Shown here in pieces: positions 3,270 through 14,399 of a stretch of DNA of 64,000 nt. The stretch comes from Candidatus Pampinifervens sinense (GTDB taxonomy: Bacteria > Aquificota > Aquificia > Aquificales > Aquificaceae). The notes under the pieces were generated by a model. It was not told where the DNA came from and did not search any database. It worked only from the letters and a program-made list of their open reading frames with translations. Location: contig JAXSPP010000004.1 of the NCBI GenBank assembly GCA_037927135.1, positions 99,710 to 163,709 on the forward strand, written 5' to 3'. Made by a program: the position numbers and the translations under genes. Positions within the stretch are counted from its first letter, which is position 1, and each line of letters starts with the position of its first letter.

Positions 3270-5447
3270 ATGTGGAGAGTGATATATACTGGCCAGAGGC
3301 CACACTATGAGAACATAGCCCTTGATAGGATCATGCTAGACCTTATGGCAGAGAATAAAATCCCACCAACAATAAGGTTTCTGCAGTTCAAGCCAGAATG
3401 TGTTCTTATAGGCTTCCACCAGGCGGTAGAACAAGAGGTAAGGCTTGAATATACTCAAAGGGAAGGTATAGAGGTGGGAAGGCGTATAACGGGCGGTGGT
3501 GCCATATACTTTGATGAAACCCAGATAGGCTGGGAGGTGATAGCCACAAAGGACCATCTTGGGGACCTAAACTACGAAGAGCTTACAAGGAAGATATGCA
3601 CTGGCGTGGCAAAGGGGCTTCAAAAGCTTGGAATAAAGGCGGAGTTCAGGCCAAGGAATGACATAGAGGTGGAGGGAAGGAAGATTTCTGGCACCGGCGG
3701 AGTTTTTGAGGGCAAGGCCTTTTTATACCAAGGCACTGTGCTTATGGATTTTAACGTAGAGAGGATGTTAAAGTCCTTGCAGATACCCGTGGAAAAGCTA
3801 ACCTCTAAGGGGATAAAATCTGCAGAGGACAGGGTAGAGTGGGTAAAGAGGGCTTTGGGCTATCTTCCGGAGAAGGAAAAGGTCTTTGAGGCCATACTCC
3901 AAGGGTTAAAGGAGGAGCTAAACATTGACTTCCAATGGGGAGAGCTGACCGATGAGGAGCTGAGGCTCCTTGAAGAAAAGAAGGACTACTTTAGAAGTGA
4001 GGAATGGATATACCATGTAAAGAAGGCTCCCACCGACAGCGAGATGCTCTTTGGTATATACAGGTGTCCAGGTGGAACCTTTAGGGTCTCCGCCAAGGTG
4101 GACCTTCAAAGCAAAGTCTTACAACAGATTATCATAAACGGAGACTTCTTTGTAAGGCCCCAAAGGCTCATATACGACCTTGAGGCCTATCTAAAGCATA
4201 CGCCCATAAAAGATGTGGAAAAAAGGATAAGGGAGTTTTTCTCTCAAAGAGAATGGGAAGGTCTAAACCTAAGGGTAGAAGACTTTGTAGAAGCTGTCTT
4301 GTTTCCCCTTAGAAAGATAGAAGGTGTGGAACTTGGCATAGAAAAAAAAAGATTGAATAACATAATAGCCTCTATAGGAGGAGGCCTAATAGAAAACCTT
4401 CAAAAGGCAAAGGTTATGCTCCTTCCTTACTGTGCCAAGCCAAGATGGTGTGATTACAGACACCTTGACGACTGTGGTGAATGTGGTGGATGCACCGTGG
4501 GCGATGCCTACAGGCTTGCCTACCAAAAGGGTATGATACCCATAACTATAACTTCTTTTGAACTTCTTAGAGACACCCTTCTCTGGTGTGCCCAAAATGG
4601 CTACACCTATGTAGGCCACTGCTGTTATGAGTTTTATGAAAAGAGGTATGAGATATTCAAAAGGGCTGCGGAAGAAGGTGCCAAGGGTGTGCTTTTTGAC
4701 ATAGTGGGAACCACATGCTACAGCCTTGGAGTGGAAGAGGAGGAAAAAGCCTATCATGGAGAGTTCACTGTGGAGCTGGATCTAATAAAAGAGGATTTAT
4801 ACAAGAGTCTTTCCGTTAAAGAGGATGTGGAAAAGGTAGAAAGACAAAGGGTTGACTTTGACTTCTCGCCATATCTCTTGGAATTCAAGCCTAGCTACTA
4901 CAAAAAGCCAAAGGCTGTGCCTACACCAAAGGAGGATATGACGAGAACTTCTATGCAAAGGGAGGTCTTCTTAGGGGAGGCCACCATTGAGGAGAAAGCG
5001 GTAAGCTATAAAGAGGCTTTGGAGCTTCTTGCCAAATGGATAAAAGAGTCGGAAAGGCCTACCATAGTGCTTGGACCTCTTGTCTTTTGGGACTTTGGAG
5101 AAAGAGATCTTCAAGAAAAGGCAAAGGCTGTGAGAGACCTTATAGAAAAGGTAGGAAGGTTCAACGTTAAAGTCCTTCCAGATTATAGGCCAAAGCTGAA
5201 AAAGTATGACCCTTCTGTGGAGATGGACCCACCAAACCCCCATCATGCCATCTTACATGGCAAGCATGACCTCACCATCCTTGTGGGAGTCCATTGCTAC
5301 AGGACAGACTTTGTTATAAGACTTTTGAGAAAACACACGGATACAAAGATAGCAACCTTGTGTGGCCTATACGGCCATCCTACAGCCCATCTTTCCACTG
5401 CCTTTACCGATGCGCAAAAGATTGAAGACCTGATAAAGCTACTTTAG
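3270..5447 (+). CDS. Lipoate-protein ligase (LplA-type) fused to a Cys-rich DUF116-like domain and a PorD/ForD (CODH epsilon-like) domain
   Basis: RRITGGGAIY, RPRNDIEVEGRKISG, C-terminal GDFF; then LLPYCAK...CGECGGC...HCC; then PDYRPK...VGVHC...LCGLYGH. Confidence 0.85.
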   Translation: MWRVIYTGQRPHYENIALDRIMLDLMAENKIPPTIRFLQFKPECVLIGFHQAVEQEVRLEYTQREGIEVGRRITGGGAIYFDETQIGWEVIATKDHLGDLNYEELTRKICTGVAKGLQKLGIKAEFRPRNDIEVEGRKISGTGGVFEGKAFLYQGTVLMDFNVERMLKSLQIPVEKLTSKGIKSAEDRVEWVKRALGYLPEKEKVFEAILQGLKEELNIDFQWGELTDEELRLLEEKKDYFRSEEWIYHVKKAPTDSEMLFGIYRCPGGTFRVSAKVDLQSKVLQQIIINGDFFVRPQRLIYDLEAYLKHTPIKDVEKRIREFFSQREWEGLNLRVEDFVEAVLFPLRKIEGVELGIEKKRLNNIIASIGGGLIENLQKAKVMLLPYCAKPRWCDYRHLDDCGECGGCTVGDAYRLAYQKGMIPITITSFELLRDTLLWCAQNGYTYVGHCCYEFYEKRYEIFKRAAEEGAKGVLFDIVGTTCYSLGVEEEEKAYHGEFTVELDLIKEDLYKSLSVKEDVEKVERQRVDFDFSPYLLEFKPSYYKKPKAVPTPKEDMTRTSMQREVFLGEATIEEKAVSYKEALELLAKWIKESERPTIVLGPLVFWDFGERDLQEKAKAVRDLIEKVGRFNVKVLPDYRPKLKKYDPSVEMDPPNPHHAILHGKHDLTILVGVHCYRTDFVIRLLRKHTDTKIATLCGLYGHPTAHLSTAFTDAQKIEDLIKLL

Positions 5448-5526
5448 AGTTTTTTCCAAAGGCTTGACAGAAAAGCTTATTGGCCTTGCAACTTTGCAAA
5501 AGCATAAGGCTTATATTAGATAACCC

Positions 5527-6585
5527 ATGATAAGGATCATTGAGCCAAGGTTTTCGGAAGAGGAAAAAGAGATTGTCTTGGAAATTTTAAATAGCGGGCA
5601 CATAACAAGAGGCAAGTGGACAGCCCTATTCCAAGAGGAGTTTGCCAAATACATCGGCGTAAAGCATGTCTTTACCGTGTGTTCTGGAACTGTGGCCCTC
5701 TTTATAGCCCTAAAGGCTTTGAATGTGGAAGGAAGGCATGTGATTGTTCCTGCCATGAGCTTTATGGCCACCATAGATGCGGTCTATTTGGCGGGAGGCA
5801 TTCCTGTGGTGGTGGACGTGGATGAATACTACACCATGGATCCAAACCAGCTGGAAGATGCGGTAAAAAGATGCAACCCTAAGGTGGTTATCCCCGTTCA
5901 CCTTTATGGGCAGACGGCGGATATGGATTCAATCATGTGGCTTTCAGAGAAGTATGGCTTTTATGTGCTTGAGGACTCTGCCCAGGCCCATGGTGCCCTG
6001 TGGAAAGGCAAAAGGGCAGGGTCTTTGGGTCATCTTTCGGCCTTTAGCTTTTACGCCTCTAAAAACATTCCCATGGGAGAAGGTGGTGCCATAGCTACCA
6101 ACGATGATGGGCTTGCCCAAGAGATAAAAAAATGGATAGACTTTGGAGATCATCCTGCCTTCAATGTAAGGATTACGGAATTTCAAGCGGGAATTGGCTA
6201 TGTGCAACTCAAAAAAGTAGAAGAAAACAACAGAAGGAGAAGGGAGATAGCTTCAAAGTATAGGCAATGTTTAAATGGGGGCTTTATTCATCCGGAAGAG
6301 AGGGAAGGAGCTTACCATGTTTATCATCTTTATACCCTCAGGCATCCAGATAGGGATAAGATAGTTAGAGGTCTAAAGGAGAGGGGGATAGACGCAAGGG
6401 TATATTATCCCTATCTACTTCATGAGCTAAGAGATGCAAAGCACTTGCCTACTCCAAGGGCGGAAAGCTTTAAAAAGGAAGTTTTTTCCATACCAGTCCA
6501 TCCATACCTTACAGAGGAGGAGGTAAATTTTGTTATTGATTCTCTTCTCTCTTTGGCACAGTTAGCTCCGCACCCCTTATGTTGA
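5527..6585 (+). CDS. DegT/DnrJ/EryC1/StrS PLP-dependent sugar aminotransferase
   Basis: SGTVAL, PVHLYGQ, EDSAQAHGA, SFYASKN.GEGG. Confidence 0.95.
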   Translation: MIRIIEPRFSEEEKEIVLEILNSGHITRGKWTALFQEEFAKYIGVKHVFTVCSGTVALFIALKALNVEGRHVIVPAMSFMATIDAVYLAGGIPVVVDVDEYYTMDPNQLEDAVKRCNPKVVIPVHLYGQTADMDSIMWLSEKYGFYVLEDSAQAHGALWKGKRAGSLGHLSAFSFYASKNIPMGEGGAIATNDDGLAQEIKKWIDFGDHPAFNVRITEFQAGIGYVQLKKVEENNRRRREIASKYRQCLNGGFIHPEEREGAYHVYHLYTLRHPDRDKIVRGLKERGIDARVYYPYLLHELRDAKHLPTPRAESFKKEVFSIPVHPYLTEEEVNFVIDSLLSLAQLAPHPLC

Positions 6586-8064: not shown

Positions 8065-9249
8065 ATGAGAGTTTTGAGCGGTATGAGACCAACTGGAAAG
8101 CTTCATCTTGGACACTATTTTGGTGTTATAAAAAACTGGATAAAGCTACAGGAAGAACATCAAACCTTTTATATGATCGCAGACTGGCATGCTCTCACCA
8201 CGGGCTACAAAAAAGTTCAGGAGATACCACAGAACATAGAGGAGATGCTTATAGACTGGATTACCCTTGGTATAGACCCTAAAAAGAGTGTCCTTTTTAA
8301 ACAATCGGACATAAAAGAACATGCGGAGCTTTTTCTTATATTTTCCATGATAACACCCAAGAGTTGGCTTGAATGGAACCCAACCTACAAGGATACAAAA
8401 TACAACCTTTTGAGGATAGCAGACCTCAGCCTTATGTTCAAAGGTGGCATAAGGGACCTTGTGAGGACCTTTATAGCCTCTTTGCCTTATAAGGTAGAAG
8501 ACTTTGAGGCCCTTGAAGAAATGCTTTTGGACAACCTTTCAGATGCCCTTATTGAGGCCCTCTTTGAAGGCCACTTGGACAAGGAAATCCTAAAAGAGCT
8601 AAATGTTTCAAAAAGAGAGTTTTACGATACGGATACTTATGGCTTTCTTGGATATCCTGTTTTGCAAGCTGTGGATATTCTCATATACAAGGCGGAGGCT
8701 GTGCCTGTAGGAGAGGATCAATTGCCACACATAGAGCTGGCAAGGGAGATAGCAAGGAGGTTCAACAGCCTATACGGTGAAACCTTTCCAGAGCCACAGG
8801 CTATGCTTACAGAAACACCAAAGCTTCCCGGCACCGATGGGAGAAAGATGAGCAAATCTTACAACAACGCCATCTATTTTGCAGACAGCAAAGAAGAAGT
8901 CCAAAGGAAGGTGATGAGCTTTTTCACAGACCCTCAAAAGCTCCGTAAAGGGGACCCAGGAAGGCCTGAAATCTGTCCTGTCTTCTTCTATCATAAGCTC
9001 TTTAGTCCATCACAAAAGGTAGAGGAAATAGAAAGGGACTGCAGAAGCGGTAAACTTGGCTGTGTTGACTGTAAAAGGCTTATGTTTGAAGGCCTTGAGG
9101 CCTTCCTTGAGCCTATAAGAGAAAGAAGAAAGGAGGTGGAAAAGGATAAGGAGATGTTAAAAGAGGTGTTAAAGGAAGGTGCTAAAAAAGCCAGAGTTAT
9201 AGCGATCAAGACTATGGAAGAGGTAAGGGAGAAGATTAGGGTGGGATGA
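8065..9249 (+). CDS. trpS: Tryptophan-tRNA ligase with a ~70 aa insertion
   Basis: SGMRPTGKLHLGH, VPVGEDQ, KMSKS. Confidence 0.97.
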   Translation: MRVLSGMRPTGKLHLGHYFGVIKNWIKLQEEHQTFYMIADWHALTTGYKKVQEIPQNIEEMLIDWITLGIDPKKSVLFKQSDIKEHAELFLIFSMITPKSWLEWNPTYKDTKYNLLRIADLSLMFKGGIRDLVRTFIASLPYKVEDFEALEEMLLDNLSDALIEALFEGHLDKEILKELNVSKREFYDTDTYGFLGYPVLQAVDILIYKAEAVPVGEDQLPHIELAREIARRFNSLYGETFPEPQAMLTETPKLPGTDGRKMSKSYNNAIYFADSKEEVQRKVMSFFTDPQKLRKGDPGRPEICPVFFYHKLFSPSQKVEEIERDCRSGKLGCVDCKRLMFEGLEAFLEPIRERRKEVEKDKEMLKEVLKEGAKKARVIAIKTMEEVREKIRVG

Positions 9250-10337
9250 TCCTTTTTTTGACAGTCTTATTCTTATTGCTTATCTACATTGTCTTTTTAG
9301 AGTTATACCCTACAAAGAGGATAAAAGCCAAGAACATCAACCTTTTCCCCTCTAAGCTACCCAGCCTTTACCTCTATTCTTTTGAGATACACCTTCATAG
9401 CCAGTTCTCCTATGATTCTTTGGGAAAGCCAGAGGACATAACAGACTCTGCAAAGTTGGAGGATATAGACTATGTGATAGTCACGGACCACGACAAGGAC
9501 CACATAAAATACTTTGCGGACCACAGGCTTATAGCCGGCGTAGAAAAGAAGGTGCTAGGAGAGGATGGTAGCATACTTGGAGACCTTCTCCTCGTAGAGG
9601 ATATAAGGGTGGTGGCCCATCCCTTCAAAGAAAAGTATAGATGGAGGATGGACCTTCCAGAGGACTACCTTTTTGAGCTTATAGACCTAAAGGATGCCCT
9701 TTTTGAAAGAAAAGGTTTGGTGTTTTTCTTCCTTCCTTATATCCTAATAAGGGGCCTCTTTTCTGTAAACTGGGCCCTTGAAGCCATTAAAAAGTTAATA
9801 CCTGTGGAAAGGTATGCCCTACAGTATCTTTCTATGGGTATAGAAAACCCTATAGTGGGAGGGCTTGACCATCATGTAAAGGTGTATGTCAGAGAGGTAA
9901 AAATACGGTTCCTTTTTCCACACTATAGACACAGCTTCAGGCTCATGAGGAACTTCCTTATCTCAGAAGAAAGGGTAGAGGGTAAAGAGGATTTTCTAAA
10001 ACAGCTCAAAAATGGCCATACGGTAATATCCTTCAGCAAAAAGCCCACGCTATACTGGAAGGAAGAAGGAAGGGTTAAGATATACCCTCCTGAAAGGTGT
10101 TTGTTAATTAGGTGCAGTAAAGATGGTTCAGAAGCCTACATAGGGTCTTACTTTGAGATGGAACAGGTTGGCACAAGCCTTTTTATTGCATATACTTATA
10201 AATTCCGATGGTCAAACTTCTACTTTGGTCTAAAGCCCCTTTTTATCTTTTTATACAAGGAGGAAAAGGGTGATGATAGTGGAAGAGATGCCTTTGCCGG
10301 AGGAGATAAAGGAGAAGATTCTTCAAAAGGTTTCTAA
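9246..10337 (+). CDS. Membrane-anchored PHP-domain phosphoesterase-like protein
   Basis: N-terminal TM; HLHSQFSYD, TDH, AHP, GLDHH metal motifs. Confidence 0.7.
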   Translation: MILFLTVLFLLLIYIVFLELYPTKRIKAKNINLFPSKLPSLYLYSFEIHLHSQFSYDSLGKPEDITDSAKLEDIDYVIVTDHDKDHIKYFADHRLIAGVEKKVLGEDGSILGDLLLVEDIRVVAHPFKEKYRWRMDLPEDYLFELIDLKDALFERKGLVFFFLPYILIRGLFSVNWALEAIKKLIPVERYALQYLSMGIENPIVGGLDHHVKVYVREVKIRFLFPHYRHSFRLMRNFLISEERVEGKEDFLKQLKNGHTVISFSKKPTLYWKEEGRVKIYPPERCLLIRCSKDGSEAYIGSYFEMEQVGTSLFIAYTYKFRWSNFYFGLKPLFIFLYKEEKGDDSGRDAFAGGDKGEDSSKGF

Positions 10338-10509
10338 TAAGGCCTTAGCCCTCAAGGCCTTTGAATATATAAAGCTTGTCAGAAGGGAGGATGGAACTCT
10401 TTGGGTTAAAGAAGAGTTTGAAGACATAAACAACCATGCCCTTTGGTTTATGGTGCTTGCCTGTGTAAACTATGCTCAAAGAATATTGAGAGGAGAGGAT
10501 ATAGACTGA
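10273..10509 (+). CDS. Hypothetical protein
   Basis: Typical codon usage; stop overlaps the queD start (TGATG). Confidence 0.7.
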   Translation: MIVEEMPLPEEIKEKILQKVSNKALALKAFEYIKLVRREDGTLWVKEEFEDINNHALWFMVLACVNYAQRILRGEDID

Positions 10510-10856
10510 TGCCTTGGAATGTGATCGTCAAAAAAAAGTTTAGCTGGGCCCATTTTTTGACAGATTACCATGGTGCGCCAGAACCTGTGCATGGCCACAC
10601 ATGGATTGTAGAGGTGCATATAAGGGTGGACAAGGTGGATGCGGGTGGGATGGGTATTGACTTTTTAGAGATAGAAGAGTTTTTAAAGAAGCTCCTTCCA
10701 GACTATGTGCTTTTAAATGATATTGTGGATTTTTCTCCAAGTGCAGAAAATATGGCAAAATGGATATACGAAAGGGTAAAAGAAAGGTTCCCCACAGTCT
10801 CCAAAGTTTTAGTTTGGGAAAAGGAAGACTGTGGGGCTGAGTATTGGGAAGATTAA
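10509..10856 (+). CDS. queD: 6-carboxytetrahydropterin synthase / PTPS family
   Basis: FSWAHFL, HGHTW, SAENMA, VWE. Confidence 0.85.
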   Translation: MPWNVIVKKKFSWAHFLTDYHGAPEPVHGHTWIVEVHIRVDKVDAGGMGIDFLEIEEFLKKLLPDYVLLNDIVDFSPSAENMAKWIYERVKERFPTVSKVLVWEKEDCGAEYWED

Positions 10857-11308
10857 CAGCTTACACAGTTCTTTTCTTTTGCTTCCCTTGCCTTCTTTGC
10901 CATTTCTGGGTCATAGGCCTTGCCTTGCCAAAGCATTTGATAGACTACTTCGTAAGTGCTTTCTGCAAGCTCTGTCAGCTCTTTGAAGAGCTTTTTAAAC
11001 CCTTCGCTTTTGTGAGACTCTTCATGATCTTCCAAACTTCTCCAAAAGGTGATTATAAGCACTTCCCTATTCTTTAAAGGATGCTCTGTAGTCTGCCCTG
11101 CAGTGGAACCTTCCAAAGAAACACCGCCAGTATTGAGAGCCACAAATCCACCATAAAAGCCTGTGTCTGAGTGGTAGGTCTTTACATACTCACAAAGGTA
11201 AGCCACCTTTTCCGCCACATCGTCCAAGGTGACCCCTTCTTTTAACACCACGTAGTTTATGTTAACTATGGCATCTTCTGGCACATCCACTATATAGTTT
11301 CCATACAT
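10853..11308 (-). CDS. Single-domain sulfur oxygenase reductase-like protein (dimeric alpha/beta barrel)
   Basis: RBS AAGGAGGT; motifs NINYVVLK, YLC, GFYGG, VLIITFWRSLEDHEESH, YEVVY, C-terminal CVSC. Confidence 0.7.
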   Translation of the reverse strand: MYGNYIVDVPEDAIVNINYVVLKEGVTLDDVAEKVAYLCEYVKTYHSDTGFYGGFVALNTGGVSLEGSTAGQTTEHPLKNREVLIITFWRSLEDHEESHKSEGFKKLFKELTELAESTYEVVYQMLWQGKAYDPEMAKKAREAKEKNCVSC

Positions 11309-11322
11309 GGTAGCACCTCCTT

Positions 11323-11354
11323 TTAAGATCATTCCGATATTCTAATATACTTAA
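11323..11354 (-). promoter_or_regulatory. 32-bp promoter/operator element shared with 36530-36561
   Basis: TTAAGATCATTCCGATATTCTAATATACTTAA; 25/32 identical to the RND-operon upstream element. Confidence 0.6.
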
Positions 11355-11405
11355 AGCTTAGAAAATAAACCATGTTCTAAATCACAGAGTAAAAGAGGCC
11401 TTCAA

Positions 11406-12566
11406 TCAATAGCCCTCGTAGGCTCTCTCGTAAAGTTTGTATATATCCTCCATGGTAGGTTCTACTGGATTTATGGGAAAGAGGCCCCTTGAAAGCATGT
11501 AGGTATCCTCTGTAAGCCTCTCTATCTTTTCCCTCTCCACTCCAAGCTCCTTTAGGCTTAGCCTCAGGCCTACTTTTTCAAGGAACTTTTCAAGGGCCTT
11601 CACCGCCATATGCGGCTTTGGCTCATAGCCCATAAGCTCTGCAAAGAGGGCATATTTTTCTGGATTGCCTTTATAGTTGAAGTCTGTAACAGCTACACCA
11701 AGGGCAGCAAGGCCTTCTGCATGGGCTATGTGCGGATAGTGGGCAGATACGGGATGTTCCATGCCGTGTATAAGGGCAACCCTTTTCCTGTCTATGGCTA
11801 TGCCTGCCAGCATGGCAGCGTAGCTCATGTAGGACCTTGCCTCTAAGTTCTCCGGATCTTCTATGGCCACTGGTAGCCACCTTCTTATAATCTGTATGGC
11901 CCTTATGGCCAGTTCTTCCGCAAAGAAGTTTGAAAGCCTGTTGGTAAGGGATTCAAGGGCGTGCATGAGTGCATCTATGCCCGTTAGGGCTGTGAGCCTT
12001 CTGTCCATACTTACTGTGAGGGAAGGGTCTATTATGGCTACCCTAGGATAGTTCAAGGAGTGGGATATGACCATCTTTTCCTTTCTTATGGGGTTTGACA
12101 GGACAGAATACCTATTTACCTCGCTTCCCGTTCCGGCGGTGGTAGGAATGCATATGACAGGCCTGTTTAAAAAGGGTATGAGTCTTGGCCCTTCTGGATA
12201 GTTCACATAGTCCCACGCATAGCCTTCATTGGAGGATACTATGGATATGGCCTTGGCAGAGTCCAAGCTACTCCCACCACCGAGGCCTACAATGTAGTCT
12301 ATCTTCTCTCTTACCACCATTTCACTGGCAAGGTTTACAGCCTTGTCTGTGGGATTGGGTTCTATCTGGTCAAAGACTAAAACCTCTTCTGCGCCGTTTT
12401 TCTTTAGAGACTCTATCACCCTGTAAAGGGCACCGTTTTCCTTAGTGCTCCTTCTGCCTGTAACTACAAGCACCCTGTAGCCAAAGCGTCTTCCTACTTC
12501 ACCAACCCTATCTACGGAACCGATTCCAAAGATAACTTCTACAGGCAAATAAAAGTCAAAGTTCAT
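11406..12566 (-). CDS. Iron-containing alcohol dehydrogenase
   Basis: GGGSSLD, PTTAGTGSE, DALMHALE, HGMEH, HAEG. Confidence 0.95.
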   Translation of the reverse strand: MNFDFYLPVEVIFGIGSVDRVGEVGRRFGYRVLVVTGRRSTKENGALYRVIESLKKNGAEEVLVFDQIEPNPTDKAVNLASEMVVREKIDYIVGLGGGSSLDSAKAISIVSSNEGYAWDYVNYPEGPRLIPFLNRPVICIPTTAGTGSEVNRYSVLSNPIRKEKMVISHSLNYPRVAIIDPSLTVSMDRRLTALTGIDALMHALESLTNRLSNFFAEELAIRAIQIIRRWLPVAIEDPENLEARSYMSYAAMLAGIAIDRKRVALIHGMEHPVSAHYPHIAHAEGLAALGVAVTDFNYKGNPEKYALFAELMGYEPKPHMAVKALEKFLEKVGLRLSLKELGVEREKIERLTEDTYMLSRGLFPINPVEPTMEDIYKLYERAYEGY

Positions 12567-13006
12567 GCTTCTGTTATATCTTCTCGCTGGATTTCCACGT
12601 CCTCTGGAATGGTTGCTTCAAAGGTAAAGGCTTGGTACGTGGGCACTATACCCTCTTCTTCTGCCTTTTCTGCGCAGTGGGCATGATACCTTGTCCAAGG
12701 TATAGCCATAAGTCTTTCAATAGGGATCTCTTCTCCACAGTATTCACAGATACCGTAAGTGCCAGCTTGCATTTTGCTAAGAGCATGGTCAATTTCCTTG
12801 ATGATGAATATCTCTCTGGTGGATAGACTATCAAGGAGCTCTTGAGTGTAGGTCATTTGGCTCACATCTTCCAAGTCTCTTGGTTCCTTTACCTCTTCTT
12901 CAATGCGGGCCTGTGTGTCTTCCTTTTTCCTGTAGCGTTCAAGGAGTTTAGCCTTTTCCTCAAGGAGCTTATTTCTCAAAAGTTCAAGCTGTTCCTTGCT
13001 TAGCAT
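12563..13006 (-). CDS. dksA: DksA/TraR family protein
   Basis: RBS AAGGAGGT; coiled coil with DLED tip; TYGICEYCGEEIPIERLMAIP. Confidence 0.85.
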   Translation of the reverse strand: MLSKEQLELLRNKLLEEKAKLLERYRKKEDTQARIEEEVKEPRDLEDVSQMTYTQELLDSLSTREIFIIKEIDHALSKMQAGTYGICEYCGEEIPIERLMAIPWTRYHAHCAEKAEEEGIVPTYQAFTFEATIPEDVEIQREDITEA

Positions 13007-13061
13007 CCCTAACCTCCTTCTTCCTAGAATGTCAAAATAATATATGCTAAAATTTTCCCTA

Positions 13062-14399
13062 ATGTATTCCCTAATACACAGGTATAAGGGTATTACTGTA
13101 GCTATTATAGCTGTTGCTACAGGTGGTTTTCTCCTCTGGCTCTTCTTCACTGGAGGGCTGACAGACATCACCTCCCCATCAAAGAGATGTGTAGTGAAGG
13201 TAAACTCTGGATGTATCACGCTTAAAGATTATAGAAGGGAGATGCTTAGGTTTTCCAGTCTTCTTCAAAATCCACAAATGGAAAAGCTTGTAAGAGATCA
13301 AGTACTATCAAACCTTATAGCTCAAGAACTTCTTTATCAAAAGGCAAAGGATCTTTCCTTGATAGCCAGCGATGAAGAGGTTATAGAGGTAATAAAGTCA
13401 GACCCTACTTTTCATGAAGGTGGTCTCTTTTCTTCTTCTAAGTACAGGGAGGTTCTTTCAAGGAATGGCTTAACACCAGAGGAGTATGAGGAATATCTAA
13501 GAAGGACCCTTAGTATACAAAAGCTTTTGAGGTTTTTGACCAACGGAGTTTACATAACAGAAGAGGAGCTAAATATGAACCTCTTGGTAGATTCTGTTCT
13601 TCTGAGCGGAAGTCTCTTCCTTATTACCCCTTCGGACATAAAAGAAAAGTATGTGCCTACAGAACAGGAGCTATTGGAATACTATCAGAAGAACAAGGAA
13701 GCTTTTAAAAGGCCAGAAAGAAGGGTACTATGGATATGGAAGGAAGGAGATAAAGGAAGGGCCCTTTCCATATATAGAGAACTGAAGGATGGAAAGGAGC
13801 CTGGTGGCTACCAACAGTTCAATTTGCCGGAAGAAGAGCAAAAATTGGAAGAGGTTGTAAAGAGGGAAGCACAAAGGCTAACACCCCAAGATAGGGTCAG
13901 TATTCTTAAAGTTGAAGGAAAGGGGTATGTGGTGGTATATTTGAAAGAGGTTGTGCCAGCTGGCTATGAAGACTTTGAGAAGGTGAAGGAAAAAGTTAAA
14001 GAGAAGCTTTTGGAGGAGAAAGGTCAAGCTTTAGCTCTTGAAAAGGCAAGGGAGATAGCAAAGGCTTTAAAGGAAGGTAAAAAGGTGGAAGTGAAAGCCC
14101 TCAACTTCTCAGATACACCAACCATACAGCTGAGCGCTGTGGTAAATATAGATCAAAAGGACCTCATACGCGTAGCTATTTCCCAGGAGAGGGTTTTTGG
14201 TCCTTATTCCCTCAGGCAAGGCTATGGAGTGCTTTGGATAGAAAGGAGGTCTAAAAGAGAGGTCAAGGAGGAAGAAAAGAGAGAGATATTAAAGGATCTT
14301 TTGAGCTTAAAAACTCAAGCTTTGCTATCAAGGTACATAGAACACCTTGAAAAGAATTCAAAGATTAAGATAAACAAAGAACTTCTTGGAGGTAGCTAG
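13062..14399 (+). CDS. PpiD/SurA N-terminal-domain periplasmic chaperone
   Basis: N-terminal TM, LIAQELLYQKA, SDEEV..I...PTF..GG.FS..KY; start uncertain (13044 or 13062). Confidence 0.85.
   Translation: MYSLIHRYKGITVAIIAVATGGFLLWLFFTGGLTDITSPSKRCVVKVNSGCITLKDYRREMLRFSSLLQNPQMEKLVRDQVLSNLIAQELLYQKAKDLSLIASDEEVIEVIKSDPTFHEGGLFSSSKYREVLSRNGLTPEEYEEYLRRTLSIQKLLRFLTNGVYITEEELNMNLLVDSVLLSGSLFLITPSDIKEKYVPTEQELLEYYQKNKEAFKRPERRVLWIWKEGDKGRALSIYRELKDGKEPGGYQQFNLPEEEQKLEEVVKREAQRLTPQDRVSILKVEGKGYVVVYLKEVVPAGYEDFEKVKEKVKEKLLEEKGQALALEKAREIAKALKEGKKVEVKALNFSDTPTIQLSAVVNIDQKDLIRVAISQERVFGPYSLRQGYGVLWIERRSKREVKEEEKREILKDLLSLKTQALLSRYIEHLEKNSKIKINKELLGGS

Follow-up and report, generated by a model that had tools for sequence, protein, structure and literature searches.

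A half-size protein, probably homologous to sulfur oxygenase reductase, with an invariant cysteine and His-His-Glu set in sulfur-oxidizing bacteria

The 64,000-nucleotide stretch of the Candidatus Pampinifervens sinense genome analyzed here (the window) carries, at 10853..11308 on the minus strand (stop codon included), a coding sequence for a single-domain protein of 151 amino acids that resembles sulfur oxygenase reductase (SOR). We consider it probable that this half-size protein is a true SOR homolog with a retained metal and cysteine site. The fuller statement, in which it is a relative of the SOR N-half and also shares the sulfur oxygenase type of chemistry, is put forward tentatively, at somewhat less than an even chance. 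SOR is, to our knowledge, the only enzyme that disproportionates elemental sulfur with oxygen. With its two domains and cage-like assembly, it has been seen as a rare specialization, restricted to a few thermoacidophiles and some bacteria.

Sequence relationship to SOR

By sequence profile, the protein lies nearest to SOR. In Pfam, SOR (PF07682) was the best match to the protein (22.2 bits, E 7.4e-5), with residues 42-125 lying on positions 31-117 of the 300-position profile, and NCBIfam returned only the SulOxRed model (NF047630). The Pfam model for the antibiotic biosynthesis monooxygenases (ABM, PF03992), which together with the Protein Data Bank (PDB) provided our ABM controls, reached 19.5 bits, below its cut-off of 23.1, and covered only residues 79-108. 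Within the family, the SOR model was matched at E<=0.01 by 46 of 66 members and the ABM model by 13 of 66. At E<=1e-5, ABM proteins were absent from the genus (0/18), and a sister family yielded only 6.

The PDB sequence searches revealed the same preference. The best solved structure for the single protein was the S. tokodaii SOR 6m35_A (E 4.6e-4). A family profile built from 22 members, including divergent ones, placed SOR chains first, comprising eleven distinct SOR sequences, with 6m35_A again the best match (E 3.6e-5; residues 13-126 of the query aligned to 6-122 of the chain). At E<=10, this profile did not match a single chain of ABM, IsdG or another barrel protein. Matches to triosephosphate isomerase, GlnK, MscS and T4 RNA ligase, which have different folds and E values of 0.004 or worse, were dismissed as chance.

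For profile-profile comparison, an SOR alignment of 24 rows was built from the true SOR of Aquifex aeolicus (genome G015), which scores 476.9 bits to PF07682. Our hhalign comparison of the family with this alignment gave a probability of 90.1% (E 1.6e-6) over 110 columns, with P values of 1.4e-6 to 1.6e-6. Given these P values and the Pfam SOR E value, the resemblance exceeds chance. The signal became clear only after the divergent members and the SOR alignment had been added. With the SOR N-half alone, the comparison gave a P value of 4.9e-7 over 101 columns, and with the C-half the match was not significant (P 0.08, 31 columns). An earlier annotation made from the DNA letters without database searches (the sequence-only reading) had described motifs from both SOR halves within the one domain; this claim does not stand, since significance is limited to the N-half. 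Compared with each other, the two SOR halves show a weak match (P 5.4e-4, 20 columns), and the GFxG motif is present in both.

The sequence-only reading fared better elsewhere. Its choice of SOR as the nearest sequence relative of a single ferredoxin-like domain is borne out by Pfam, NCBIfam, the PDB and hhalign, and the sequence profiles put SOR ahead of the ABM and IsdG barrels that it had named as competitors. The SOR motifs that it quoted were also found in solved SOR chains, whose PDB alignments contain AINMAELK...KVC, VLQYTFWKDWKDHEEMH, WEPIY and GFLGAMVLKEIG-VSG. In the translation of the half-size protein, NINYVVLK occupies residues 16-23, YLC ends at Cys39, GFYGGFVALNTGGVSLEGS occupies residues 50-68, and VLIITFWRSLEDH95EESH99 and YE120VVY follow.

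Conservation of the SOR catalytic residues

In the HMMER alignment with 6m35_A, Cys39, His95, His99 and Glu120 of the half-size protein align with Cys31, His86, His90 and Glu114 of SOR. The codons concerned lie on the minus strand at 11192..11194 for Cys39, 11012..11026 for His95-Glu-Glu-Ser-His99 and 10949..10951 for Glu120. According to PMC7398979, the iron of the S. tokodaii SOR is ligated by His86, His90, Glu114 and two waters, and the H86A, H90A, E114A and C31A variants lack both the oxygenase and the reductase activity; C101A and C104A retain about a tenth of the activity. The Cys-to-Fe distance in SOR is 9.5-13 A (PMC7398979). Among 109 aligned column pairs, conservation reaches 90% or more in both families in 16, and in 12 of these the residue is the same: Cys39, Gly50, Phe51, Gly61, Gly67, Thr87, Trp89, His95, His99, Phe108, Glu120 and Tyr123.

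Conservation was counted in proteins translated from 77 species genomes, drawn from the best 80 of at least 599 matching stretches. All four catalytic residues are present in 77/77, so the conservation of the Cys and His-His-Glu set proposed from the single sequence holds throughout these homologs. His46 and Trp89 are likewise kept in 77/77 and Asn18 in 76/77, and altogether 42 of the 151 positions are invariant across phyla. In the family alignment, Cys39 is invariant in 66/66 rows. The Cys, the H-E-x-S-H helix and the Glu are also kept in divergent members of 27-46% identity and in rhodanese-fused relatives, and the rows without catalytic residues are visibly frameshifted metagenome calls. 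The terminal CVSC motif, to which the sequence-only reading had also drawn attention, is indeed present at residues 148-151 but is not conserved: both Cys residues occur in only 8/77 homologs, some of the Aquificaceae, and a functional redox pair was therefore rejected. We infer from the alignment that His95, His99 and Glu120 would hold a mononuclear metal, most likely non-heme iron as in SOR.

Predicted fold and assembly

The AlphaFold model (mean pLDDT 88.6, pTM 0.78) predicts a ferredoxin-like beta-alpha-beta-beta-alpha-beta fold, composed of beta1 (14-22), alpha1 (28-49), beta2 (51-58), an inserted hairpin (62-64 and 73-75), beta3 (82-89), alpha2 (92-99 and 102-112), beta4 (115-124) and a C-terminal helix (134-147). 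In this model, Cys39 is located on helix 28-49, His95 and His99 on helix 92-99, and Glu120 on strand 115-124.

The top Foldseek matches include 3bgu, 9lmm and IsdG (1xbw), that is, proteins of the ABM dimeric alpha+beta barrel, and generic ABM proteins ranked above SOR in the fold searches. The longest structural alignments are nevertheless those with SOR (130 residues for 2cb2_A and 125 for 6qpa_A, as against at most 106 for ABM proteins), although the structural aligner places the model on SOR residues 145-308, in the C-half. On the choice between SOR and ABM, the two kinds of evidence thus diverge: sequence profiles prefer SOR, and fold searches rank ABM above it. Since the ABM barrel tops the fold searches, the fold alone does not single out SOR, and it is the sequence that does so.

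A homodimer is predicted, in agreement with the homo-oligomer that the sequence-only reading had proposed. The two-copy model scored 0.77, compared with 0.00 for the best of three controls, with a contact agreement of at least 83% among the dimer runs and a partner pLDDT of at least 81. In calibration, 20 of the 30 proteins known to be pairs from their solved structures came up to the mark for a dimer, as did 1 of 23 solved as single chains. The score may in part reflect likeness to known complexes, because ABM dimers are among the solved structures. In the predicted interface, beta2 (55-62) pairs with beta4' (121-127), as in ABM dimers, and the C-terminal helix and residues 39, 95-96 and 99-100 also take part.

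Family size and naming

A scan of one genome per species found at least 599 matching stretches, and relatives are encoded in at least 578 species genomes. A word-indexed search returned 292 proteins at E<=0.001 among 316 candidates. The Aquificaceae members are about 80-89% identical to the query, and those named Thioalkalivibrio, Thiohalobacter, Thioalkalispiraceae, Thiobacter, Thiotrichales and Chromatiales about 58-65%. An exhaustive HMMER search covering 1.84 billion cluster representatives yielded 125 matches at E<=0.001. Only 2 of them fell at E<=1e-30, and the core family therefore corresponds to two 50%-identity clusters surrounded by a divergent fringe. The fringe members have 118-155 residues, and the longest of the 125 matches has 228.

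No model dedicated to the family was found in Pfam or NCBIfam, and an ESM Atlas search returned only the family's own unnamed clusters. The database names are 'ligand-binding protein SH3', 'antibiotic biosynthesis monooxygenase family protein', 'heme-degrading monooxygenase HmoA' (for some members, by JGI) and 'hypothetical'. These labels are inconsistent and uninformative across sources, as the sequence-only reading had anticipated in expecting mis-annotation. The literature searched, which did not extend to subscription journals and supplementary files, yielded no description of a half-size SOR. One 90%-identity cluster, P0151, mixes 124-residue relatives named HmoA with proteins of 74-87 residues named ribosomal protein S21; this mixture looks like a clustering artifact or an overlapping gene call in marine metagenomes.

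Hosts and distribution

The named hosts are Aquificaceae and sulfur-oxidizing Gamma- and Betaproteobacteria. The source genome (1.55 Mb in 12 contigs, 99.96% complete) contains no full-size SOR, and the ORF at 10853..11308 is its sole PF07682 signal. In the family Aquificaceae, a true SOR was found in 1 of 61 genomes (G015). The half-size protein was found in 35 of the 61 (31 of 46 if only good-quality genomes are counted) and is represented in 8 of the 12 genera. When 151 genomes of the phylum were surveyed, with the source genome excluded, 43 of 72 Aquificaceae had it and none of the 78 genomes sampled from four other families did.

SoxZ is encoded in 56 of the 61 Aquificaceae genomes, including the source genome. 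Given this near-universal presence, the hosts are sulfur oxidizers, but the half-size gene is not tied to Sox, and with so common a SoxZ and so patchy a gene, the phyletic contrast between the two is uninformative within the Aquificaceae. The association with sulfur oxidizers that the sequence-only reading had proposed to check in the phyletic profile is supported by the named hosts and by SoxZ. The sequences suggest lateral transfer of the gene, because its distribution in the Aquificaceae is patchy and the identity to proteobacterial copies is about 60%.

One divergent cluster includes a protein of Sulfurisoma sediminicola. Two relatives from Thermoplasmata metagenome-assembled genomes (MAGs), P0210 (196 residues) and P0218 (199 residues), have a rhodanese domain with a Cys-x4-Arg loop at the N-terminus, followed in the same chain by the SOR-like domain. 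Both retain the Cys, His, His and Glu residues, and their Pfam SOR match falls in the SOR C-half (profile 151-205).

Two side observations concern individual loci. In G015, a frameshift after ...SLEGSTA divides the half-size gene into two frames that overlap (locus L097, 236-702; contig C1, 1302035-1302501), a single case that may be a pseudogene or a sequencing error. Loci L004, L021, L038, L058, L062 and L063 are labeled as MAGs of Acidobacteria, Halobacteria, Spirochaetia and Jiangellales and are likely mis-binned contigs; L004 has the Aquificaceae gene order and a 90% identical protein.

Gene and genomic context

The 151-residue ORF, its strong ribosome-binding site and all the motifs quoted in the sequence-only reading stood up on the minus strand with their numbering intact. 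The ORF listing also offers a longer form that starts at the ATG at 11332 and has 159 residues (8 additional codons). The shorter form is preferred because the Shine-Dalgarno sequence AAGGAGGT (11315..11322, minus strand) lies 6 nt ahead of the ATG at 11308 and the homologs begin at the same Met.

Upstream, beyond a gap of 97 nt, an iron-containing alcohol dehydrogenase (Fe-ADH) gene is located on the same strand (11406..12566, minus; its ortholog matches Pfam Fe-ADH). It is preceded by a DksA/TraR-type zinc-finger gene (12563..13219, minus; ortholog matching Pfam zf-dskA_traR), which may head a three-gene unit, with a promoter-like site at 13257-13228 on the minus strand that has 10/12 matches, by consensus only. 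No promoter-like site was found on the minus strand in the 97-nt gap, and the promoter and terminator scan scored no higher than shuffled sequences. On the other side, a convergent 6-pyruvoyl-tetrahydropterin-synthase (QueD-like) gene occupies 10443..10856 on the plus strand (ortholog matching Pfam PTPS). Its 3' end overlaps that of the half-size gene by 4 nt (10853-10856), and there is therefore no room for a terminator between the two. Further along, a 363-residue ORF at 9246-10337, with no Pfam family at E<=1e-8, adjoins a tryptophanyl-tRNA synthetase gene, and its cluster (c24) is kept in neighboring Aquificaceae loci.

Across the 77 loci, we found no conserved operon and no partner gene conserved across lineages; of the 253 gene clusters within 3 genes of the target, only 60 occur in two or more loci. 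An Fe-ADH neighbor is present in 10/77 loci. In nine, all Aquificaceae, it lies directly upstream, and in the tenth, the gammaproteobacterial L076, it lies downstream on the other strand, within 4 genes. Sulfur-linked genes stand within 4 genes in 16/77 loci. In 4 loci, the gene immediately downstream encodes ATP sulfurylase. A molybdopterin oxidoreductase accompanied by a DmsC-like anchor, read as SoeABC-like by composition only, lies nearby in 4 loci, and a YeeE-type sulfur transporter in 1. Iron genes are sporadic: Fur occurs in a single locus and bacterioferritin together with Bfd in two. Overall, the support of the context for a sulfur role is weak.

A further sulfur-linked arrangement is found in nine Thioalkalivibrio loci (L027, L032, L036, L039, L040, L042, L044, L045 and L048), where a regulator composed of an ArsR-type helix-turn-helix (HTH) part and a rhodanese domain is divergent from the half-size gene, at about 5000-5900 in each locus. 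Its HTH part is similar to repressors of the BigR and SqrR types as well. In 3/9 of these loci, the regulator is followed by a metallo-beta-lactamase gene of the persulfide-dioxygenase-like kind, and an MFS transporter gene follows too; the best solved relatives of the former are persulfide dioxygenases, both rhodanese-fused and free (3r2u, 3tp9, 4ysb, 5ve3 and ETHE1 4chl). This arrangement looks like a persulfide-response locus, but since the strains are close kin, the nine loci amount to about one observation.

RNA libraries

In the hot-spring metatranscriptome X1 (assembled contigs), a 991-nt contig aligns to 10652-11642 with 61 differences (about 94% identity) and spans the whole gene. Its depth is 36.5, compared with 5.5 and 18.2 for the flanking contigs, and the differences within the gene, among those listed, fall mostly at third codon positions. 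Of the raw-read runs, X19 and X20 placed no reads on the sequence, and X21 placed 5. The gene of a close relative is thus present in an RNA library, which is not proof of transcription and defines no transcript. X1 also contains contigs of 31-60 nt, at depths of 500-2600, that stack at about 12033-12087 in the Fe-ADH gene (12017-12093), where the bin depth is 1627 compared with 18 nearby. This pile-up is probably a conserved word common to abundant other organisms.

Proposed function and alternatives

Based on the predicted structure and the SOR alignment, we propose the following mechanism. Two copies would pair through their beta-sheets into an ABM-type alpha+beta barrel. In the pocket between the sheet and the helices of each copy, His95 and His99, placed at i and i+4 on one helix, would bind a metal together with Glu120 of beta4, and Cys39 on alpha1 would bear sulfane sulfur as a persulfide. 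The most likely chemistry would correspond to the oxygenase side of SOR catalysis, with O2-dependent oxidation of the Cys-bound persulfide or polysulfide to sulfite; it would take place in the cytoplasm of sulfur oxidizers with an aerobic or microaerophilic way of life. The sulfur would probably be delivered by a rhodanese-type sulfurtransferase, a step suggested by the rhodanese fusions and neighbors. In its most specific form, the protein would be a minimal, free-standing SOR module: a homodimeric non-heme-iron protein-persulfide oxygenase that accepts sulfur from rhodanese-type carriers at Cys39, uses O2 to oxidize it to sulfite, provides an unrecognized cytoplasmic route alongside Dsr and sHdr, and represents the single-domain state that preceded the duplicated SOR. 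We regard this specific form as doubtful.

Several observations weigh against the oxygenase proposal. On the sequence side, the protein does not reach the Pfam SOR gathering score of 25, its NCBIfam score is 20.8 bits against a cut-off of 400, and a shallow 25-row family alignment matched one SOR sequence with a probability of 15.5%. SOR Cys101 and Cys104 have no conserved counterpart in the family; at this stretch, the Aquificaceae have ELAES (Ala/Ser), and the proteobacterial members have ELCENG, with a Cys beside, not on, Cys104. The single pocket proposed for the four residues derives from their places on alpha1, alpha2 and beta4 of the model and from the SOR alignment. Zinc could occupy the site instead of iron, because an HExxH motif followed by a Glu about 20 residues on also fits a gluzincin-like site. 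SOR is assembled as a hollow sphere of 24 subunits, unlike the predicted homodimer. The window neighbors are the Fe-ADH, DksA-like and QueD genes, 61/77 loci have no sulfur gene within 4 genes, and the genes most often found beside it serve housekeeping or stress functions (the Mrp antiporter in 13 loci, DegP in 10 and Hsp20 in 6). Finally, the gene is less widespread in the Aquificaceae than SoxZ, and therefore is not required for sulfur oxidation.

One alternative is that the protein would be an ordinary enzyme or binder of the ABM superfamily, acting on a non-sulfur substrate such as a small aromatic or quinone-like compound. Its likeness to SOR would then reflect fold ancestry, and the His, Glu and Cys residues would serve another chemistry or another metal such as zinc. 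The Pfam scores of the two models are nearly tied, and some divergent relatives exceed the ABM threshold (P0149 with 35.3 bits and P0210 with 43.5 bits). The alcohol dehydrogenase gene upstream in the window and the mostly sulfur-unrelated context would also suit such an enzyme. However, the PDB profile search retrieved eleven distinct SOR sequences and not one ABM chain, the catalytic set of SOR is retained exactly and without variation, the organisms with the gene form a narrow range of sulfur oxidizers, and there are relatives with a rhodanese fusion. We therefore judge an ordinary ABM function unlikely.

Another possibility would be that the protein handles sulfur without catalysis, as a persulfide carrier, as a sensor of persulfide, sulfide or oxygen, or as a stress protein of sulfur oxidizers. 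The invariant Cys and the rhodanese fusions suit a sulfur relay equally well, and the Thioalkalivibrio gene shares its divergent promoter region with the ArsR-rhodanese regulator. In several Gammaproteobacteria, the gene follows a response regulator (5 loci) and a hybrid kinase (4 loci). In others, stress genes lie near: besides DegP and Hsp20, a DnaJ-type gene is found in 4 loci, and stress genes are about as frequent as sulfur-linked ones. The invariant positions, moreover, exceed the needs of a metal site and could reflect partner surfaces. On the other hand, a carrier needs the Cys alone, and here the full Cys and 2-His-1-Glu set is always kept. A sensor would have to be reconciled with the lack of any fused DNA-binding or signaling domain among the 125 matches of all lengths and with the lack of a partner gene conserved across lineages. 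A purely non-catalytic role is, in our view, rather unlikely.

A heme-binding or heme-degrading protein of the IsdG/HmoA type is highly improbable: although JGI names some members HmoA, IsdG and IsdI are among the top Foldseek matches with the highest identity of those (18-22%), and the conserved Asn18, Trp89 and His99 may correspond to the Asn-Trp-His triad of IsdG, with His99 as the axial ligand and the same Trp-to-His spacing of 10 (by residue numbering, not by alignment), no IsdG, IsdI or MhuD chain was matched at E<=10 by the protein or the family profile, no NCBIfam heme-oxygenase model was matched, the invariant Cys39, His95 and Glu120 would be left unexplained, and the spacing is not specific to heme enzymes, as SOR has the same Trp-x9-His in the 6m35_A alignment.

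Significance

Returning to the SOR relationship, a conserved half-size relative that carries the SOR-essential residues in at least 578 species genomes would alter the current picture of SOR, and most of the Aquificaceae carriers searched are without a true SOR. If sulfur turnover holds true, a missing oxygen-dependent step would be added to the models of cytoplasmic sulfur oxidation, a small, dimeric and thermostable system would become available for SOR chemistry without the 24-mer, and the finding would bear on the evolution of SOR. If the protein were indeed a minimal SOR, hundreds of neutrophilic, alkaliphilic and thermophilic sulfur oxidizers would gain an oxygen-dependent route. Even with no sulfur turnover, there would still be an unnamed and strongly constrained family, with its 42 invariant positions, that now goes under three unrelated database labels.

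Comparison with known systems

SOR (PF07682/NF047630; structures 2cb2, 6m35 and 6qpa) is the closest family by sequence profile, and the alignment spans the whole SOR N-half. SOR Cys31, His86, His90 and Glu114 have invariant counterparts in the half-size family. The ferredoxin-like fold of the model carries a long beta2-beta3 insertion, and it is SOR that gives the longest structural alignment. Both proteins occur in sulfur oxidizers, partly in the same lineages (Aquifex and Thioalkalivibrio). The two also differ: the SOR subunit of about 300-330 residues consists of two fused ferredoxin-like halves, whereas the half-size protein has one domain in 151 residues, and it possesses, unlike SOR, an extra conserved C-terminal helix (134-147) that contributes to the predicted dimer interface. 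The protein may represent either the pre-duplication-like state named in the sequence-only reading or a secondary truncation of the SOR N-half: its sequence is closer to the N-half, its model is superposed best on the C-half, and the signal is too weak to support a rooted tree.

The predicted structure assigns the protein to the ABM-fold superfamily, although its Pfam ABM score stays under the threshold. The ABM proteins (PF03992; SnoaB 3kg0, RslO4 7bio, ActVA-Orf6 1lq9 and IsdG 1xbw) form the same type of sheet-to-sheet homodimer, with beta2 pairing with beta4', as that predicted here. The half-size protein is about 45 residues longer than these, owing to the conserved beta2-beta3 insertion and the C-terminal helix. 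The cofactor-independent ABM enzymes are not known to have the Cys and His-x3-His...Glu set.

The proposed chemistry is alike in outline to that of the persulfide dioxygenases (ETHE1, PDO and CstB), in which a 2-His-1-carboxylate iron serves the oxidation of persulfide to sulfite with O2 and which often work with, or are fused to, rhodanese domains (3r2u, 3tp9 and 5ve3). These enzymes have the unrelated metallo-beta-lactamase fold and no homology to the half-size protein. Their substrate is a low-molecular-weight persulfide, while the sulfur of the half-size protein would sit on its own Cys39. The protein is not to be classed as an SOR: its scores lie under both curated thresholds, it consists of a single domain where SOR has two, and it is without Cys101 and Cys104. 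A single-domain variant of the SOR type is the most apt description.

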